Shown here in pieces: positions 23,702-32,124 of a stretch of 36,745 bases of DNA. Positions within the stretch are counted from its first letter, which is position 1. Each line of letters begins with the position of its first letter. The notes under the pieces were generated by a model, which was not told the DNA's origin, did no database searches, and worked only from the letters and a program-made list of their open reading frames with translations. The position numbers and the translations under genes were made by a program. The DNA is from a virus. Taxonomy: Duplodnaviria > Heunggongvirae > Uroviricota > Caudoviricetes. Where the stretch lies: the IMG/VR virus record IMGVR_UViG_2585427964_000003; one strand, given 5' to 3'.

Positions 23702-23874
23702 TGTCAGGAGTCCTGAATAGTGATTAGAGGAGTCACATGTCGGCATCAGTTTCCCGACGATGCGCATCCTCCGCCATCAGTCCCGGATGGCTTATCACTG
23801 ACACAACAGCACCTTAGCGAATCGCAGGGCGCGACTCAGTAGCCTTGCCGTGTATTCATCACGGCGAGGTATTC

Positions 23875-25647
23875 ATGACCATCACCACAGACACCACTCT
23901 TTTACACGACCCGCGTCGTCAGGCGGCGCTGCTGTACTGGCAGGGGTTTTCCGTGCCGCAGATTGCCGCCATGTTGCAGATGAAACGCCCGACGGTGCAG
24001 AGCTGGAAACAGCGCGACGGCTGGGACAGCGTTGCCCCCATCAGCCGTGTCGAAATGAGTCTGGAAGCGCGGCTGACCCAGCTCATCATCAAACCGCAGA
24101 AAACCGGCGGTGACTTCAAGGAAATTGACCTGCTGGGACGCCAGATTGAACGACTGGCACGGGTAAACCGTTACAGTCAGACCGGCAACGAGGCAGACCT
24201 TAATCCGAACGTCGCTAACCGCAACAAAGGCGGGCGGCGCAAACCGAAAAAGAATTTTTTCAGTGACGAGGCCATCGAAAAGCTGGAGCAGATTTTCTTT
24301 GAGCAGTCTTTCGACTATCAGTTGCACTGGTATCGCGCCGGGCTTGAGCACCGCATCCGCGATATCCTGAAATCCCGCCAGATTGGCGCGACGTTTTATT
24401 TTTCCCGCGAGGCGCTGCTGCGCGCCCTGAAAACCGGCCATAACCAGATTTTTCTGTCGGCCAGTAAAACGCAGGCGTATGTGTTCCGCGAATACATCAT
24501 CGCCTTTGCCCGTCTGGTTGACGTTGACCTGACCGGTGACCCGATTGTCCTGGGCAATAACGGTGCAAAACTGATTTTTCTCGGCACCAACTCCAACACC
24601 GCACAGAGCCATAACGGCGACCTGTACGTCGATGAGATTTTCTGGATCCCGAATTTTCAGGTACTGCGTAAGGTGGCATCAGGTATGGCCTCACAGAGTC
24701 ACCTGCGCTCGACCTATTTCTCCACCCCGTCCACGCTGGCGCACGACGCCTACCCGTTCTGGTCGGGTGAACTGTTCAACCGGGGACGCGCCAGCGCCGC
24801 CGAACGCGTGGAAATCGACGTCAGTCATAACGCCCTTGCCAGCGGGCTTCTCTGTGCGGACGGCCAGTGGCGGCAGATTGTCACCATTGAGGACGCCCTG
24901 AAAGGCGGCTGCACGCTGTTCGACATTGAGCAGCTCAAACGCGAAAACAGCGCCGACGATTTTAAAAACCTGTTCATGTGTGAATTTGTTGACGACAAGG
25001 CGTCGGTGTTCCCGTTCGAGGAGCTGCAACGCTGTATGGTCGACACGCTGGAAGAATGGGAAGACTATGCGCCGTTTGCCGCCAATCCGTTCGGCTCACG
25101 TCCGGTATGGATTGGTTACGACCCGTCACACCGTGGCGACAGCGCCGGATGCGTGGTACTGGCACCGCCGGTGGTGGCCGGTGGCAAATTCAGAATACTT
25201 GAGCGTCACCAGTGGAAAGGCATGGACTTTGCCACCCAGGCTGAATCCATCCGCAAACTCACCGAAAAATATAACGTCGAATACATCGGTATTGATGCCA
25301 CCGGCCTCGGTGTCGGCGTGTTCCAGCTCGTGCGCTCGTTCTATCCCGCCGCGCGCGATATCCGCTACACGCCGGAAATGAAAACCGCAATGGTGCTCAA
25401 GGCAAAAGACGTTATCCGCCGTGGCTGTCTGGAATATGACGTCAGCGCCACCGACATCACCAGCTCGTTTATGGCTATCCGCAAGACCATGACCAGCAGC
25501 GGACGCAGCGCCACCTATGAGGCCAGTCGCAGCGAGGAAGCCAGCCACGCCGACCTCGCCTGGGCGACCATGCACGCCCTGTTAAATGAGCCACTCACCG
25601 CCGGTATCAGCACCCCGCTGACATCCACCATTCTGGAGTTTTACTGA
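23875..25647 (+). CDS. P: Terminase large (ATPase) subunit gpP
   Basis: ATG at 23875 with a GAGG Shine-Dalgarno gives 590 aa (MTITTDTTLLHD...) as in P2 P; divergent from O. Confidence 0.9.
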   Translation: MTITTDTTLLHDPRRQAALLYWQGFSVPQIAAMLQMKRPTVQSWKQRDGWDSVAPISRVEMSLEARLTQLIIKPQKTGGDFKEIDLLGRQIERLARVNRYSQTGNEADLNPNVANRNKGGRRKPKKNFFSDEAIEKLEQIFFEQSFDYQLHWYRAGLEHRIRDILKSRQIGATFYFSREALLRALKTGHNQIFLSASKTQAYVFREYIIAFARLVDVDLTGDPIVLGNNGAKLIFLGTNSNTAQSHNGDLYVDEIFWIPNFQVLRKVASGMASQSHLRSTYFSTPSTLAHDAYPFWSGELFNRGRASAAERVEIDVSHNALASGLLCADGQWRQIVTIEDALKGGCTLFDIEQLKRENSADDFKNLFMCEFVDDKASVFPFEELQRCMVDTLEEWEDYAPFAANPFGSRPVWIGYDPSHRGDSAGCVVLAPPVVAGGKFRILERHQWKGMDFATQAESIRKLTEKYNVEYIGIDATGLGVGVFQLVRSFYPAARDIRYTPEMKTAMVLKAKDVIRRGCLEYDVSATDITSSFMAIRKTMTSSGRSATYEASRSEEASHADLAWATMHALLNEPLTAGISTPLTSTILEFY

Positions 25648-26681
25648 TGAGCAAGAAAAAAGGGAAAACACCGCAACCTGCGGCAAAAACAATCACCGCC
25701 AGCGCTCCGAAAATGGAGGCATTCACCTTTGGTGAGCCGGTGCCGGTACTCGACCGCCGTGACATTCTGGATTACGTCGAGTGCATCAGTAACGGCAGAT
25801 GGTATGAGCCACCGGTCAGCTTTACCGGTCTGGCAAAAAGCCTGCGTGCTGCCGTGCATCACAGCTCACCGATTTACGTCAAACGCAATATTCTGGCTTC
25901 AACGTTTATCCCGCACCCGTGGCTGTCCCAGCAGGATTTCAGCCGCTTTGTGCTGGATTTTCTGGTGTTCGGTAATGCGTTTCTGGAAAAGCGTTACAGC
26001 ACCACCGGTAAGGTCATCAGACTGGAAACCTCACCGGCAAAATATACCCGCCGTGGCGTGGAAGAGGATGTTTACTGGTGGGTGCCGTCCTTCAACGAGC
26101 CGACAGCCTTCGCGCCCGGCTCCGTGTTTCACCTGCTGGAGCCGGATATTAATCAGGAGCTGTACGGCCTGCCGGAATATCTCAGCGCCCTTAACTCTGC
26201 CTGGCTGAATGAGTCGGCCACGCTGTTCCGCCGCAAGTACTACGAAAACGGCGCACATGCCGGATACATCATTTACGTCACTGATGCCGTGCAGGATCGC
26301 AATGATATCGAAATGCTCCGCGAAAACATGGTGAAGTCGAAAGGCCGCAACAACTTTAAAAATCTGTTTCTCTATGCCCCACAGGGGAAAGCCGACGGCA
26401 TTAAAATTATCCCGCTCAGTGAAGTGGCGACGAAGGATGATTTTTTTAATATCAAAAAAGCCAGCGCCGCAGACCTGCTGGACGCGCACCGCATCCCCTT
26501 TCAGTTGATGGGCGGCAAGCCGGAGAACGTCGGGTCGCTGGGTGATATTGAGAAAGTGGCAAAGGTCTTTGTCCGCAATGAGCTTATCCCGTTACAGGAC
26601 AGGATCCGCGAGATAAACGGCTGGCTCGGTCAGGAGGTCATCCGATTTAAAAACTACTCACTGGACACTGACAACGGCTGA
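25647..26681 (+). CDS. Q: Portal protein gpQ
   Basis: 344-aa ORF, size and position match P2 Q; start overlaps the P stop (TGATG). Confidence 0.92.
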   Translation: MSKKKGKTPQPAAKTITASAPKMEAFTFGEPVPVLDRRDILDYVECISNGRWYEPPVSFTGLAKSLRAAVHHSSPIYVKRNILASTFIPHPWLSQQDFSRFVLDFLVFGNAFLEKRYSTTGKVIRLETSPAKYTRRGVEEDVYWWVPSFNEPTAFAPGSVFHLLEPDINQELYGLPEYLSALNSAWLNESATLFRRKYYENGAHAGYIIYVTDAVQDRNDIEMLRENMVKSKGRNNFKNLFLYAPQGKADGIKIIPLSEVATKDDFFNIKKASAADLLDAHRIPFQLMGGKPENVGSLGDIEKVAKVFVRNELIPLQDRIREINGWLGQEVIRFKNYSLDTDNG

Positions 26682-26686
26682 ACATC

Positions 26687-26708
26687 GCCGCCTGCGGGCG
26701 GCTTTTTT
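26687..26708 (+). terminator. Rho-independent terminator downstream of Q
   Basis: GCCGCC-TGCG-GGCGGC stem-loop followed by TTTTTT, 6 nt after the Q stop. Confidence 0.75.
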
Positions 26709-26850: not shown

Positions 26851-26869
26851 GTGCTTTCCCCGCCTCGCC
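26851..26869. other. cos cohesive-end site (P2-type 19-nt sequence)
   Basis: GTGCTTTCCCCGCCTCGCC is the reverse complement of GGCGAGGCGGGGAAAGCAC, which I recall as the P2 19-nt cohesive end; it lies between Q and the cargo/A region as expected. Confidence 0.8.
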
Positions 26870-27016: not shown

Positions 27017-27901
27017 TCAGGCGCAAGTTGGCATTGAGACCCCTTTCAGGGTATTAGGAATAATTATTTCAGGAGAAAAAATCATCACTTCCTCTCCAGA
27101 TTTTTTGAGATGTGCTGTATATTGCAATGAATACTCAACTTGCGGAAATCCATTATAAATATCTTTAATTTCCTTAGCGTTATCATAAGAAACAAGCCAA
27201 TTTGGGAAATTAATTTCTGTGAGTTTCTTCATAACCAATACATGGTCATCATGCTCATAAAAATTCCTGTAAAGCCCTTGCCCTTTAATATAGTAAGGAG
27301 GATCCAAATACAAAAGAATTTTATTTTTATCCACCTTTCCCATATTATCCATAAAATTCAAGGCATCAAGAAAATCCAAAGCATCCAGATTAGTTACTAC
27401 TATTCTTTGATTATAATTTGCTATCTTCTCAATTCTTGAAATTAAATCCGCCCTGTTAAAGCGAACATCCATTTTCCATTTTCCATTTTGTGATTTCCCG
27501 CCTATAACCCCCGCCTTGAGAATACCTGAACGATTTGTTCTATTTAAGAAAAACGCAGCAAAGCCAACCTCAAGCTTAGTAAACTCAGAAGGATTCGAAA
27601 TAACATAGCGATGAAAAGACCATTCATCCATATCTATCTTTGCTCGGCTAATAAGTCGGCAAAGCTCATCAGTATCACTAACAACAGATGACCAAAAAGA
27701 ATAAACAGCAAAATCTGCATCATTTATATAGATTTTACGGACATACTCTTCCAATAATAATTCTAAAGCCACCCCTGCACCACCAGCGTAAGGTTCTGCA
27801 TATGCTCCATCATTCAACGAGTTTTTTTCAATAACATCTTTTAAAAAGTAAGATAACTTACCTTTCCCGCCGGGGTATCTTAATGGAGTATAAAATTTCA
27901 T
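27017..27901 (-). CDS. Dam-class (D12 family) N6-adenine DNA methyltransferase
   Basis: 294-aa ORF with GAGGG Shine-Dalgarno; motifs YPGGKGKL near the N-terminus, PYAGGAG (SAM-binding FxGxG-like) and LDPPYY (catalytic DPPY). Strongly AT-rich; lies in the tin/old-equivalent position. Confidence 0.8.
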   Translation of the reverse strand: MKFYTPLRYPGGKGKLSYFLKDVIEKNSLNDGAYAEPYAGGAGVALELLLEEYVRKIYINDADFAVYSFWSSVVSDTDELCRLISRAKIDMDEWSFHRYVISNPSEFTKLEVGFAAFFLNRTNRSGILKAGVIGGKSQNGKWKMDVRFNRADLISRIEKIANYNQRIVVTNLDALDFLDALNFMDNMGKVDKNKILLYLDPPYYIKGQGLYRNFYEHDDHVLVMKKLTEINFPNWLVSYDNAKEIKDIYNGFPQVEYSLQYTAHLKKSGEEVMIFSPEIIIPNTLKGVSMPTCA

Positions 27902-27938
27902 AAATCCCTCTCATTCCTGATTTTGTAGTTTATCAGTT

Positions 27939-27958
27939 TCTGGACATCCATGTCCAGA
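27939..27958. promoter_or_regulatory. Perfect palindrome TCTGGACA-TCCA-TGTCCAGA upstream of the methyltransferase gene (candidate operator)
   Basis: 8-bp perfect inverted repeat with 4-nt spacer in the 69-bp gap between the two cargo genes, 38-57 nt upstream of the methyltransferase ATG. Confidence 0.4.
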
Positions 27959-27970
27959 TGTAGACAAATC

Positions 27971-29476
27971 TCACTCACTCCAAATAAGGCTTAATAACAA
28001 CTCAAAGTTATCCCACTCAGTGTTGACAGCCTCTTTTGAGGGAATTAAGTGTGGGTTATGTACATACTGCTGCAATGAACCATCATGTTTAGTTATTTGG
28101 CTCGAGAAAGTTATTACAGCCGTACATTGACTCCCCGTCATCTTTTTATTTTCCCGAAGGAAATTAGCACACATTTTAACCTTATCATGAAGCCCTGGAG
28201 TTCTATGTGGTTCCTTAAATTGTAACTTGTTTTCTTCAACAAAAGTGCTTACAGAGAGATCTATAAATATTCTCAACAATATTGAGATAGCATTAGGGGT
28301 GTTATCAAATGTCAGATGCGACTTAAGCTCATTAAATATTCTAGAGCATTTCTTATGCCCTCTAAAATTAAATTTCACATAAGATGGCACCAACACATTA
28401 CGATCTACTTTAGGAGGAGTTTTTCCCTTGTTTTTATTCTGTTCCGTGCCCGAAACTTTAGATTTACTCTCTTCTGTGCCTACATGTCTAGAATAATCAT
28501 CTTCCTGTTTATCCACACCTGTATTCTTTAAGGCATCACCTTCTGAAAGACCTACTTTCTTTACACTCACAGATGCATCATTTTTGTCAATAGAATCATG
28601 TTTTTTCTCTGTAAGAAAAGATTTAGGCTCCAGTAAACTCCACGGCTTATCTAAAAGAGATTCTGAAGGTTTTATTTTTTGTTCAATAATAAATGTAACC
28701 CTGTCATCTTGGCTACGAATCCTATTAACAGTAAAACAAGCCTTACCTTTATCATCCTCTTCAATCATTACATCTAAAATATTTTTTAATTGTGCACAAA
28801 AACGTTCATAAGGCTGATATGAGTATAGAACTCCATTAATGCTTTTTAAATTAAAATAATCCCTCACCTTTAAATCACCAAAAAGACGCGTGATGTTTGT
28901 GATTTTTAAAAGTCTTTTTTTAGCAATTATCTCTTTATATAAATCAGTATTGAACTCTATAAATGTAAGTATTTGATTACCAAATGACTGCTTACCCATC
29001 CTAGCCAGATGTCGTGCTTTTTCTGTTGCAGTCCATTCAACTCTTCCAACTCCAGCATTTTGACCAGTATGCTTTAAATTGACCCAATGCTCATATTCAT
29101 CATCGTCAAAAAGAACGCAGTTATCTATAACATTAATATCTTTAAGCTGAGTAATCTTAAGTTTTTCAAAAGCTTTCCGTGCTTTTTCTGTTGGTGCAAG
29201 TCTAGGAGAGTGTAAAAGTTTAAGGGCTGTAACTCGACGATTACCTTCAGCAACGACGAAAAAGCCAGATTCCTCTTCACTAGGATAAACTAATATGTTT
29301 TCAGACGGATCTAAACCTTTCGAAGCAATATCTTTAGCCAAGCGATAAATGCGGTCGTACTGCAAGTCAAGCATCTTGGCAATAGCATCACGCTGATTTT
29401 CTGCTGACGTCGGGAAACGAGGGTTATCAACATCCAAAAGTAACTTATTGATATTCATTGATTTTAGTTGATTCAT
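27971..29476 (-). CDS. ParB/Srx-fold nuclease-domain protein with long C-terminal extension (cargo gene)
   Basis: N-terminal region LLLDVDNPRF ... ILVYPSEEESGFFVVAEGNRRVTALKLL carries the ParB N-terminal domain signature (GxRR). A Lys/Glu/Ser-rich low-complexity linker is followed by a roughly 150-aa C-terminal domain of unrecognised type. Start chosen at ATG 29474-29476 (AGAGGA Shine-Dalgarno 8 nt upstream, 501 aa); the ORF track extends to 29545 (524 aa). AT-rich. Confidence 0.7.
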   Translation of the reverse strand: MNQLKSMNINKLLLDVDNPRFPTSAENQRDAIAKMLDLQYDRIYRLAKDIASKGLDPSENILVYPSEEESGFFVVAEGNRRVTALKLLHSPRLAPTEKARKAFEKLKITQLKDINVIDNCVLFDDDEYEHWVNLKHTGQNAGVGRVEWTATEKARHLARMGKQSFGNQILTFIEFNTDLYKEIIAKKRLLKITNITRLFGDLKVRDYFNLKSINGVLYSYQPYERFCAQLKNILDVMIEEDDKGKACFTVNRIRSQDDRVTFIIEQKIKPSESLLDKPWSLLEPKSFLTEKKHDSIDKNDASVSVKKVGLSEGDALKNTGVDKQEDDYSRHVGTEESKSKVSGTEQNKNKGKTPPKVDRNVLVPSYVKFNFRGHKKCSRIFNELKSHLTFDNTPNAISILLRIFIDLSVSTFVEENKLQFKEPHRTPGLHDKVKMCANFLRENKKMTGSQCTAVITFSSQITKHDGSLQQYVHNPHLIPSKEAVNTEWDNFELLLSLIWSE

Positions 29477-29832
29477 CAACATATCCTCTGTTGAATCTTT
29501 ATGATAAAAATTAATTATTTTTATCATAAATGATAGCGTAAACATAGTCTTATGAACGACATCAGCCCTGAAGCTTCAAAACTATCATTTACGTTTGCGA
29601 GGCACCATCTATCACATTGATTTATAATAAGTATCTTTATCTTCACTGCATTGCTCTCAAAAAATCACATAGATGGAAATTCCCCGTTGACACACTCCCA
29701 AGTGATGCAGATACATTTCAAGTGCTTCATACACATGATAACGGCTATCCCCCTAAATTCTGTGCGTTTCTTTTCCCTCCAGCACAAGGTTGAAATATCT
29801 TGCGTGCAGCTTTACTTTGTGAATCTTTGTCA

Positions 29833-32124
29833 TTATATCCGCGCCATTACTGTTGAGAATCCCGGCCACTCATCAGCGACCGGATACGTGAATTTTTTCC
29901 CGTCATAATTTACGGTCGCGCCACGCGCCAGCACCTCAAGCTCCCATCGTTGCGGCCTGATACCGTTCTGAGCGAGGTCAACGCGGATACGGGTAATTTG
30001 CAATCGTTCCGACCGGGTCAGTCTGGCCGACGGTGCTATTTCATGCGGTTTTAACGGGCTTCCGGCTCTTTGCTGACGATTTGGTGTTCTCAGTCCGTGT
30101 TTTAATGCGCCCCTGAGCGCCCTCACGACCTCCGGGTCATTCCATTCGATAACACCGTCATCAACCAGATTAAGCACTGCTGCGACGTGCTCAGAAGGTG
30201 TGGGAGCCGGTAACGAAGTATCACCACTGGTGAGCTTTCCACAGTTATTGACAGGACTCCGAGGCGCGGCGATGCCGCTTTTTAAAGTCAAAGGCTCAAC
30301 GACCGGAACTTTCAGCACAATGCGCCAGTCCGTCGTTCTGGTGATATGAATATGACGCGCGCCGAGATGCGGCGCGTAAATGCCGACCACTCTCTCGACT
30401 TCTTCCTCATACTCGTTAACGTCATCTGACGGGCTACGGGCGACCCTGACAGTCTGACAATCGCGCGGGACATTTGCCCCACCCTGCGCGCTGATATACA
30501 ACGCAAAATCACCACTGTCTGCGGCGGCGCGTGCAGCCTCGACGCGTTCGTCAAACTCATCAGCAATGCTGACGCCGCGAGGCAATTTGCGTAGCTCACG
30601 GTAAGCCCCCATTGTCGGCAGGCCAACCGTTTTAAATTGCGGGATGCGCCACGTTGACGCCCATGCGGTAACAGCCGCGGCAGTATCTTTAAGCGGCTTA
30701 CCGGTATCGTTATCGAGCTGACCATCCAGTGCATAGCCGTCGATATTTTTTGAAATGTATTTCGCGATATATCCCGCAGCACCGCCCCGGTTAAGGTGTT
30801 TTGCCTGAAAACGGTTTCGCGCAGCGCCTCTTTCGTCACCATCCTCTTTGAGCGCATAGCGACGCATGATTTCGATAATCTGGTTACGCTGGCGTGGATT
30901 ACAAAAAAGCATCATATGCCAGTGCGGCGTTCCGTCGTGGTGTGGCTCGACGACACGCAAACCGTAGACCTGTAAATCATTATCCTTGAATGCCGTGCGC
31001 ATCAGGCTCCAGATACGGCAGAGATAACGCTGCGCATCCTTTGGATTAAATGCCTCATCGTTCCAGCCGTGATTAAGCTGAACGGTTTTACTTTCGCCTT
31101 TTCCGACCTGACGTGTCGGGTGATACTTTGACGGCGCGGTCAGCGTGATAAACATCCCCACATCACCCTCTGCGGCGGCGTAACGCTCAATACCGGCAAT
31201 GGTGTTCATCAGCTCCATCCGGCGAATTTCAGGATTAGAAATACTGCCCATCACCTTACTGATAAGGTCGATGCGCTCGCCGGTTTCCCTGTTTTCAAGG
31301 TCACACGATTTAAGAAATTCCAGATTTGCCTGGCGGCGCGCACGCACATCACGAATGGCATGTTTACTGGCATAAGGAGAACGGTCTTTATTGACCTCCC
31401 CGACAGCTATCAGTAAAGCTTCATGCCAGCGCATACGCTGGCCTTTAAGCTGATGAGTCCACCACTCATCGTTAAACAGGCGGGCAATGGCAGAATATGC
31501 CTGCCTCGTGGTTATCTGTCCTTTACGGTATTTTTTCCAGTAGAGCGGGGAAATATTGAAAGCACGTGCAGCGCCAGCAACATGACCATACAGATGATCC
31601 TGCGCCTCATCCGTAAACAGTGATTCTTTTTCGCCATGCGCATCCACCCAGGCATCGCAGAGTTCCTCATACATCATGAAAAGCTGCGATGAAATACGGG
31701 CGGCAAACTTTTTCAGCTCCTTGTCATTCATCCCCGGCAGACGCGCATAGTGGTCACGCTCAGCCAGAAACAGCAACGACGCGTCGGTGTTCATTTCATG
31801 GCGCTGATTCACGCGCTCAATGCGCGGCCATAAACGACGCTGAAAAGTGGATGTGAGGAAATAAAACCCGTGTACCGGGCTTTTATTGCGCCGGATGTAG
31901 TCATAGCGTGAAGTAAACAGCGAGCGCAAAAAGTAAGGCAGGCGGTTAATCGTGGATAAAACCCCTTGCACCTGACGCATCTCGTCACGTGTAAGGGGTC
32001 TTTCGCGCCCGACGGCCTCGCGTGGCGCGTTCCATGCATAAGCACCGGTAAACGTCTTACCGGTGCCTGCAGCAAATGCTGACGTAGTTACGCAGGTGTA
32101 TTGCTCCTGGAAAGAATGACTCAT
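29833..32124 (-). CDS. A: Replication initiation endonuclease gpA (rolling-circle)
   Basis: 763-aa ORF MSHSFQEQYTCVTTSAFAAGTGKTFTGAYAWNAP...; size and position match P2 A (about 761 aa from memory). Confidence 0.92.
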   Translation of the reverse strand: MSHSFQEQYTCVTTSAFAAGTGKTFTGAYAWNAPREAVGRERPLTRDEMRQVQGVLSTINRLPYFLRSLFTSRYDYIRRNKSPVHGFYFLTSTFQRRLWPRIERVNQRHEMNTDASLLFLAERDHYARLPGMNDKELKKFAARISSQLFMMYEELCDAWVDAHGEKESLFTDEAQDHLYGHVAGAARAFNISPLYWKKYRKGQITTRQAYSAIARLFNDEWWTHQLKGQRMRWHEALLIAVGEVNKDRSPYASKHAIRDVRARRQANLEFLKSCDLENRETGERIDLISKVMGSISNPEIRRMELMNTIAGIERYAAAEGDVGMFITLTAPSKYHPTRQVGKGESKTVQLNHGWNDEAFNPKDAQRYLCRIWSLMRTAFKDNDLQVYGLRVVEPHHDGTPHWHMMLFCNPRQRNQIIEIMRRYALKEDGDERGAARNRFQAKHLNRGGAAGYIAKYISKNIDGYALDGQLDNDTGKPLKDTAAAVTAWASTWRIPQFKTVGLPTMGAYRELRKLPRGVSIADEFDERVEAARAAADSGDFALYISAQGGANVPRDCQTVRVARSPSDDVNEYEEEVERVVGIYAPHLGARHIHITRTTDWRIVLKVPVVEPLTLKSGIAAPRSPVNNCGKLTSGDTSLPAPTPSEHVAAVLNLVDDGVIEWNDPEVVRALRGALKHGLRTPNRQQRAGSPLKPHEIAPSARLTRSERLQITRIRVDLAQNGIRPQRWELEVLARGATVNYDGKKFTYPVADEWPGFSTVMARI

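Follow-up and report, generated by a model that had tools for sequence, protein, structure and literature searches.

The question raised by this locus is what a perfect 20-bp palindrome is doing in the short untranslated gap between the two genes of a prophage defence system. The DNA analysed, referred to below as the window, is the whole 36,745-nucleotide stretch of IMG/VR virus record IMGVR_UViG_2585427964_000003. The window is an E. coli P2-like prophage in which the two genes of the PD-lambda-5 system are the only genes between gpA and cos. The neighbouring genes are those for the Phage_GPA replication protein (29833-32124, minus strand), the portal protein (25647-26681, plus strand) and the large terminase (23845-25647, plus strand). 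The two PD-lambda-5 genes are as follows.

27971..29476, minus strand: PD-lambda-5 gene A, 501 aa from an invariant Met, with a ParB/Srx-like N-domain and a HEPN-like C-domain.
27017..27901, minus strand: PD-lambda-5 gene B, a D12/Dam-class N6-adenine DNA methyltransferase of 294 aa.

The gene A ORF is open back to 29545 (27971-29545, 524 aa). A sequence-only reading of the window had called the cargo genes ParB-like and methyltransferase, and PADLOC, Pfam and fold searches agree with it. PADLOC identified the upstream protein as PD-Lambda-5_A (E 6e-168) and the downstream protein as PD-Lambda-5_B (E 1e-121), the latter also matching Pfam MethyltransfD12. Sequence searches with the A protein against PDB, Pfam and NCBIfam gave no usable match, and its ParB/Srx and HEPN domains were identified by fold search only; in the fold comparison with KorB, which bears on whether A has an HTH domain, only 126 of 201 KorB residues were aligned. 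In the B protein the D12 domain begins at residue 9 of 294, with no further domain and no N-terminal HTH extension.

PD-lambda-5 was described by Vassallo et al. 2022 (PMC9519451): it consists of these two genes and occupies this P2 hotspot, which lies between gene A of the phage and cos/portal. In the passages of that paper that treat the system, it is termed a compacted prophage RM+Abi system, a label with which the ParB/Srx and HEPN fold seen here agrees. Those same passages mention neither an intergenic element nor an internal promoter nor CsrA, and a literature search found no mention of the two protein accessions. PD-lambda-5 ranks among the broadest-acting systems of an E. coli pangenome screen. 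The system as such is known. The literature searched, which for PMC9519451 comprised the PD-lambda-5 passages, gave nothing on the element between the genes, on an internal promoter or on a possible link to CsrA, all of which are described below. Each component belongs to a familiar kind, whether extended -10 promoter, intercistronic hairpin or CsrA-type site. With a methylase and a toxic partner, the two proteins must stay balanced.

Between the stop of the ParB-like ORF at 27971 and the methylase ATG at 27901 is a gap of 69 bp. The palindrome had been placed in this gap at 27939-27958, and both the coordinates and the sequence, TCTGGACATCCATGTCCAGA on the plus strand, proved exact. In DNA form the palindrome is TCTGGACAT-CC-ATGTCCAGA, a 9-2-9 arrangement; in hairpin form it is 8-4-8. 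Because both flanking genes are on the minus strand, the minus strand is the sense reading, and the sense RNA of the palindrome is TCTGGACA-UGGA-UGUCCAGA. The gap, written as sense RNA, and its parts are these.

Gap, sense: UGA g auuugucuac A UCUGGACA UGGA UGUCCAGA aa CUGAU aaacuacaaa AUCAG gaau GAGAGGGA uuu AUG.
27939..27958, minus strand: inverted repeat, hairpin 1, UCUGGACA-UGGA-UGUCCAGA, with an 8-bp stem and a 4-nt loop, -11.4 kcal/mol.
27944..27953, minus strand: CsrA/RsmE-type motif ACAUGGAUGU, 10/10 against (A/U)CANGGANG(U/A), with the loop GGA at 27949..27947.
27951..27956, minus strand: -35-like hexamer TGGACA, within the 5' arm of hairpin 1; TnGACA is invariant in relatives.
27927..27935, minus strand: extended -10 TGaTAAACT, lying 18 bp downstream from the -35, with TG, TA and the last T unchanged in all 20 relatives.
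27917..27936, minus strand: inverted repeat, hairpin 2, CUGAU-N10-AUCAG, bracketing the -10 hexamer; its outer pair occurs as UA, UG or CG.
27915..27917, minus strand: the GGA of CAGGAAU, at -16 counted from the methylase ATG; in relatives a GGA is found at -16 or -22.
27905..27912, minus strand: methylase Shine-Dalgarno (SD) sequence GAGAGGGA, which includes a GGA at -6.

Set against chance within the window, the palindrome is only moderately unusual. The 20-mer occurs once in the window, even when 3 mismatches are allowed; the window holds 6 perfect inverted repeats whose arms reach 9 nt or more, compared with 1.4 +/- 1.1 in dinucleotide shuffles, and the probability that a shuffled 69-nt gap contains one with arms of 8 nt or more is 0.006. 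The decisive argument against chance, drawn from sequence comparison, is that 20 distinct homologous loci conserve the repeat and show compensatory changes in it. A search of Rfam with region 27700-28200 gave nothing meaningful. Several other candidate identities were considered and rejected. As a dispersed repeat, TRGACATGGATGTCYA matched 72 viral contigs, of which just 10 are PD-lambda-5 loci; by a rough estimate the other matches are at about the level that chance gives for a 16-mer in such a collection. A small ORF across the gap runs for 17 codons from the loop AUG in the window and is stopped after 3 codons in locus L009. The Ogr/delta late-promoter dyad TGT-N12-ACA and the LexA, CRP and FNR boxes, compared by eye, have the wrong spacing or orientation.

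To follow the gap through evolution, 175 loci with A homologues were assembled from viral, metagenomic and genomic collections. The core set consists of loci in which the A protein is 66-100% identical to that of the window; it comes from Escherichia, Enterobacter, Klebsiella, Salmonella, Cronobacter, Edaphovirga and metagenomes and contributes 20 distinct gap sequences, nearly all of 69-70 nt. Complete E. coli genomes carry one allele only of the segment (22 of 5426 genomes, at 99.6% identity or more) and for that reason are uninformative on variation. The Genome_contigs collection supplied a single locus, L001, and neither the GenBank phages nor the PLSDB plasmids contained a relative with an A protein more than 34% identical. 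The order of the genes, A then B, is well kept: among the first 161 loci fetched of the 175, a B homologue was present in the same locus in 145, downstream and on the same strand in nearly all. The size of the gap is more variable outside the core set, with A and B abutting or overlapping in many distant lineages (gap of -16 to 10 nt) and separated by 50-90 nt in others.

An inverted repeat was found at the same site in 20/20 distinct relatives, so that the conservation check proposed with the sequence-only reading came out in favour of the palindrome. Within the core set the L011/L086 clade has arms lengthened to 12 bp, AAACAUAGACAU gg AUGUCUAUGUUU. In other lineages the same place is occupied by unrelated hairpins of different geometry, with arms of 7-18 nt and spacers of 2-20 nt. 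Examples, given as arm-spacer-arm, are 10-8-10 (L015), 11-4-11 (L173), 10-3-10 (L090), 18-12-18 (L024), 8-12-8 (L036) and 11-20-11 (L033); L087 has a 12-bp stem with four G.U pairs. Such varied arm and spacer geometry across lineages is typical of RNA hairpins and is not like the sites of one family of dimeric binders.

The palindrome had also been tentatively assigned to the control region of the methyltransferase, and this assignment was supported by its 5' arm, which is the -35 of a conserved, predicted extended -10 promoter. In the 20 relatives the invariant columns of the gap are T-GACA, G-A in the loop, GTC, TG-TA---T and the Shine-Dalgarno purines. The extended -10 occurs as TGaTAAACT, TGaTATACT, TGgTACAAT, TGaTATGAT and other variants, and 18 bp upstream of it is T-GACA, as either TGGACA or TAGACA; the pair in the window was also called by a consensus scan. 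When all 46 distinct gaps of at least 45 nt were examined, TGnTAnnnT was present on the sense strand in 35, as against 6.5 in shuffles (maximum 14) and 3 on the antisense strand. The accompanying -35-like hexamers were TGGACA, TAGACA, TGGCCA or TGGAAA. So lineages with a gap have a predicted internal methylase promoter, P_B, of the sigma-70 extended -10 type. In the window the 3' arm of the palindrome forms the start of the P_B spacer. A candidate promoter for gene A, with a conserved TATGAT as its -10, was found upstream of 29476. We also considered whether a half-site of the palindrome is repeated at the A promoter; this idea was rejected, the 8-mer ATGTCTAG being common to L009 and L163 only, with no covariation in other clades.

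RNAalifold, run on the alignment of the 20 relatives only, predicted the 8-bp stem with its 4-nt loop and a second, 5-bp stem, CUGAU...AUCAG, around the -10. In the 16-pair model of both stems, 88.4% of cells are paired, compared with 30-51% if the 3' partners are shifted by 1-3 columns. The covariation score was 0.220, the shuffle mean was 0.160, and 0 of 500 shuffles reached either the observed pairing or the observed score. The outer pairs of the stem show compensatory change, C-G to A-T and T-A to C-G or G-C. By alignment column, pair 33/50 is CG in 10 relatives and AU in 6; pair 32/51 is UA in 11, UG in 4, CG in 2 and GC in 1; and pair 35/48 is GU in 9, AU in 6 and GC in 5, and is never unpaired on the sense strand. 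Each relative can fold locally (20/20, at -4.3 to -12.8 kcal/mol), and 19 of the 20 leave the GGA free of pairing in the loop. Read as DNA, the palindrome does not hold its ninth "pair": opposite an invariant A, the position just 5' of GG is U in 14 relatives, G in 3, A in 2 and C in 1.

The direction of the mismatches was also informative. Changes were inferred by Fitch parsimony at 13 predicted pairs, on a neighbour-joining tree built from flanking coding DNA. For both hairpins on the sense strand there were 13 changes from Watson-Crick to G.U, 2 from Watson-Crick to A.C, 8 to other mismatches and 3 double changes. Third codon positions of the same loci served as a control and showed no bias, with 501 transitions of the G.U type and 550 of the A.C type. 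The G.U versus A.C asymmetry is significant for both hairpins together (p=0.003); for hairpin 1 alone the ratio is 6:2 (p=0.16). A tolerance for G.U on the sense strand fits RNA, because a double-stranded site has no reason for strand-specific wobble tolerance. Folding z-scores of sense and antisense strands, compared over all lineages, showed no consistent bias. Taken together, the evolutionary pattern suits a sense-RNA structure better than a DNA operator bound by a symmetric dimer, and we consider that the palindrome is probably a selected RNA structure of one kind or another. The Enterobacterales clade of PD-lambda-5 would then combine a predicted internal methylase promoter with a selected intergenic RNA hairpin.

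What might such a hairpin be for? The SELEX consensus for CsrA is RUACARGGAUGU, in which ACA and GGA are 100% conserved, with the GGA preferentially in a hairpin loop (PMC4347634, PMC2896534), and the structural optimum for RsmE is (A/U)CANGGANG(U/A) (PMC6849547, PMC5864733). The sequence ACAUGGAUGU, which spans the loop of hairpin 1, agrees with the RsmE optimum at 10 of 10 positions and with the SELEX consensus at 10 of 12, including the conserved ACA and GGA; the two 5' positions of the consensus (RU) read GG or AG here. The resemblance to CsrA and RsmE ligands is at the level of the motif only, and the stem, at 8-12 bp, is longer than in typical CsrB-type sites. Among the relatives the motif can be written ACA-N-GGA-N-GU, and only the two N positions vary, the first as U14/G3/A2/C1 and the second as U18/C1/G1. 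The apparent broken pairs beside the loop (A.C in L016, A.G in L167) both fall on the second N. The loop GGA is present in 20/20 relatives, with a one-base shift in L170, and is closed by ACA and (U)GU.

The distribution of the motif was examined more widely. On the sense strand WCANGGANGW was found in 20 of 54 distinct gaps, namely those of 19 of the 20 close relatives (all except L170) and that of L172; there were 0 on the antisense strand and 0.15 in shuffles. Across the window the motif occurs 4 times where 3.6 are expected, i.e., it is not rare by itself. Where A identity falls below 60%, the hairpins lack the motif. In L172 the ACAUGGAUGU sequence is retained while the outer stem is lost, and the motif is displaced by about 8 nt relative to the -10. 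Because L172 retains ACAUGGAUGU at a changed distance from the -10, -35 function alone fails to explain the motif. The gaps of the clade are also rich in GGA, with 3.4 per gap against 1.54 in shuffles (maximum 2.25); TCC stands at 0.30. These GGAs have fixed positions in the clade: -48 (the loop), -22 or -16, and -6 (the SD). In the window the GGAs at -16 and -6 lie 32 and 42 nt from the loop GGA. CsrA bridges sites 10-63 nt apart. At the SD, 5 of the 20 relatives (L011, L012, L086, L013 and L001) have AGGU instead of GGA.

From these sequence features we tentatively propose, as the best single reading though at somewhat less than even odds, that the gap holds an intercistronic RNA stem-loop with a CsrA-type site, overlapping the methylase promoter. 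The weak point of the CsrA reading is that the ACA is explicable by the -35 and the GUC by pairing to the -35, and that the loop GGA amounts to three columns. The specific case for CsrA rests on the loop GGA, the pattern at the N positions, L172 and the density of GGA in the aligned gaps. Formation of the RNA in vivo, binding of CsrA and the direction of the effect are what we infer from these. In the proposed scheme, transcripts from the A promoter would read through the gap, and the stem-loop would form on the read-through RNA, exposing a high-affinity CsrA-type site with its GGA in the loop. A CsrA dimer could then bridge the loop GGA to the GGA at -16 or at the SD, and bridging would tune methylase translation and possibly stabilise the A message or protect its 3' part. 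P_B would supply a second, hairpin-free methylase transcript: predicted P_B starts downstream of the hairpin, so its transcript would be without the loop site and any effect would be confined to read-through RNA. Were P_B the source of most methylase mRNA, the hairpin would matter just for the read-through fraction. If the CsrA site is real, a prophage defence and modification module would be tied to a global growth-phase regulator of the host.

The nearest known parallel to such a CsrA-controlled gap is the T1 stem-loop of the ColE7 cei-cel operon, where CsrA has been shown experimentally to bind both GGA sites and to repress translation of the downstream gene (for the consensus sequences, the loop requirement and this precedent together: PMC4347634, PMC2896534, PMC6849547, PMC5864733). 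Both loci are on mobile elements, with an untranslated gap of about 60-70 nt between two genes of an operon; in both a stem-loop right behind the upstream gene has GGA in its loop, and a second GGA overlaps the SD of the downstream gene. By this analogy, the layout of the gap is the architecture of a CsrA-controlled leader. There are differences. T1 is also a working terminator, whereas the hairpin of the window is without a U tract; unlike in ColE7, the downstream gene here has a predicted promoter within and behind the hairpin; and the gene that CsrA would regulate here is the DNA methylase of a defence system, as against a lysis gene in ColE7.

A second account keeps the RNA structure and dispenses with a protein partner: the element would be a plain structural hairpin, i.e., a leaky attenuator, a 3'-end stabiliser or a processing site closing the A message. 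The two genes would then be partly uncoupled, with the methylase made from its own promoter. All of the covariation and G.U evidence applies to such a hairpin. Unrelated hairpins at the same position in L015, L173, L090, L024 and L087 are also in keeping with it, some of them being GC-rich and followed by short T runs (L173, L015), and 4-6 U follow the stem in several close relatives of the window (L012, L001, L174, L011). Further, an internal promoter directly behind a hairpin is the normal partner of a terminator. In the window allele, however, intrinsic termination should be weak, since AAACUGAU follows the stem on the sense strand; on the antisense strand the sequence is UGUAGACA. The sequence-only reading had noted that no U tract follows and that the palindrome looks less like a terminator than an operator; that it is not a canonical terminator was confirmed: there is no T/U run on either strand, and when the palindrome was considered as a Rho-independent terminator the stem had 4 GC among its 8 pairs and the terminator scan made no call. 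With just 8 bp and -11 kcal/mol the stem is modest, and a structural role alone leaves unexplained both the invariant loop GGA and the retention of ACAUGGAUGU in L172 despite loss of the outer stem. A plain hairpin is a possibility that we hold to be on the unlikely side.

In place of RNA, the palindrome might act as DNA, as an operator or a parS/OB-like site that overlies the methylase promoter and to which a dimeric protein binds. Within the locus the sole candidate binder is the ParB/KorB-like A protein, and the methylase would be autoregulated relative to the effector. This is what the sequence-only reading had proposed, minus the C protein, and several points are in its favour: the repeat sits on a conserved promoter, across its -35 and spacer, which is the classic position for a repressor, and no U tract follows it. 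Both arms keep the inner half-site T(G/A)GACA, and lineage-specific palindromes could reflect co-evolution of protein and site. Against it is the nature of the selection, which fits RNA better. The outer positions covary while the protein is little changed; G.U is tolerated and A.C is not, yet strand has no meaning for a double-stranded site; at the ninth pair of the DNA palindrome the T is free to vary opposite an invariant A; spacing of 2 to 20 nt between the arms, along with the range of arm lengths, is unusual for one dimeric family; and there is no second copy of the site, e.g., at the A promoter. We regard a DNA operator of this sort as unlikely.

The likeness to known operators was considered in two forms. 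The sequence-only reading had invoked controller-regulated R-M systems, and with the C-protein operators of type II systems, e.g., Kpn2I (PMC6237814), the locus shares a palindrome in the control region of an R-M-like pair, where such an operator is expected to balance the methylase against a toxic partner. The analogy fails on inspection. The cargo region contains no C-protein gene or small HTH ORF, and the small ORFs of the flanking regions have no HTH or Pfam match; there is one palindrome and not tandem C-boxes; the site is upstream of the methylase and not of C or R genes; and the evolutionary pattern points to RNA. Autoregulation by the methylase itself, of the SsoII/EcoRII type, requires an N-terminal HTH extension, and B lacks one. 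With KorB OB and ParB parS sites the resemblance is in the ParB/KorB-like N-terminal fold of the upstream protein and, for OB, in a 20-bp palindrome beside a gene and adjoining a -35, like class I OB sites. Against these, the spacing of half-sites is not conserved among the homologues, the centre of the palindrome is asymmetric and invariant in sequence, strand-specific G.U tolerance is unexpected for a double-stranded site, and the A protein has a HEPN C-domain in place of the ParB dimerisation domain.

In its most specific form the operator idea makes the palindrome a loading or operator site of A itself, whose ParB/KorB-like and possibly CTP-dependent N-domain would clamp DNA over the methylase promoter; this we consider improbable. 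On this idea a ParB-type switch would both autoregulate the modification gene and give a HEPN-armed defence protein its DNA-sensing module, the differing palindromes of the lineages would be co-evolved cognate sites, and the site would offer an entry point to the mechanism of PD-lambda-5. Whether the element is a CsrA site or a site of the A protein, it should be left intact when PD-lambda-5 is cloned or re-engineered.

Two last proposals are very improbable. One is a methylation-sensitive promoter, in which the palindrome holds the recognition site of B (e.g., GGATG) and methylation of the -35 and spacer feeds back on transcription. The D12 class takes in FokI-type GGATG methylases, GGATG is nearly invariant in the core (17/20 relatives) and the element overlaps the promoter, but L016, L167, L170 and the 44% group have no GGATG, and the proposal leaves the stem covariation and the strand asymmetry unexplained. 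The other, that the palindrome has no function of its own and is a by-product of a -35 hexamer and chance symmetry, can draw on the roughly 1.4 perfect repeats with arms of 9 nt or more that chance alone would put into the window and on the -35 as the explanation for left-arm conservation, but conservation in the right arm, a part of the promoter spacer, equals that in the left, and the arms covary to a degree reached by none of the shuffles.

The 69-bp gap between gene A and gene B (the methylase gene) of the PD-lambda-5 system holds a second small inverted repeat, and the -10 hexamer lies between its arms.

27917-27936, minus strand: inverted repeat CUGAU-N10-AUCAG

Its outer pair occurs in the states UA, UG and CG, and locus L171 has a compensatory G-C at an inner pair. 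Formation of this hairpin is possible only in read-through RNA, i.e., the transcript that runs from the gene A promoter across the gap. In the gaps of distant lineages, with A proteins 26-45% identical (L017, L031, L033, L036, L037, L045, L046, L088, L121 and L141), a nearly invariant TGGCCA(A) precedes a -10-like hexamer by about 17 bp. TGGCCA(A) constitutes a palindromic -35-like hexamer, and its conservation far exceeds that of the surrounding sequence. In L019, L020, L022 and L027 (A about 44% identical), CACA-(U/G)GGA(U/A)-UGUG directly adjoins an extended -10, with an additional AUGGA upstream. This mini-hairpin carries GGA in its loop and exceeds the CsrA optimum in length by one base; homology with the window's element at 27939-27958 and convergence on it are the two alternatives for its origin.

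Two features lie upstream of the gene A start at 29476.

29498-29530, minus-strand context: perfect AT-rich inverted repeat with 14-nt arms, TTTATGATAAAAAT-aatta-ATTTTTATCATAAA
29479-29491, minus strand: gene A translation-initiation region, ACAGAGGAUAUGU

The repeat overlaps a promoter-like site, TTTACG-17-AATAAT. From this region relatives retain only TTATG...CATAA and a conserved -10-like TATGAT(A); therefore the repeat with 14-nt arms is specific to the window's allele. The initiation region reads ACAGAGGAUGUG in nearly all relatives. The sequence overlapping the SD resembles the CsrA consensus ACA-R-GGA-UGU but has one base extra, and gene A might be subject to the same post-transcriptional control as that proposed for the methylase.

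The gene A product has a predicted two-domain architecture.

27971-29476, minus strand: PD-lambda-5 A protein, with a ParB/Srx (KorB-like) N-domain and a C-terminal HEPN domain in the predicted model

In the same model a disordered linker, residues ~314-376 of the 524-aa ORF, joins the domains. Pfam, NCBIfam and PDB sequence searches detected neither the ParB/Srx nor the HEPN domain of A.

The methylase and portal genes are separated by a stretch that contains GGCGAGGCGGGGAAAGCAC (26851-26869, minus strand), which we take to be the 19-nt P2 cohesive-end (cos) sequence; by this position the cargo occupies the known P2 hotspot adjoining cos. Directly 3' of the portal gene is a terminator.

26685-26702, plus strand: strong terminator of the canonical type, GCCGCCTGCGGGCGGC and then TTTTTT

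Its TTTTTT run contrasts with the hairpin at 27939-27958, which has no U tract. At the other end of the cargo, between the replication gene and gene A, the segment 29752-29833 (minus strand) has as its counterpart in E. coli strain 3359 (NZ_CP103739.1), whose segment is a near-identical copy of the window's (99.5% identical), a frameshifted DUF3850 pseudogene fragment by RefSeq annotation. An earlier cargo probably left this fragment behind.
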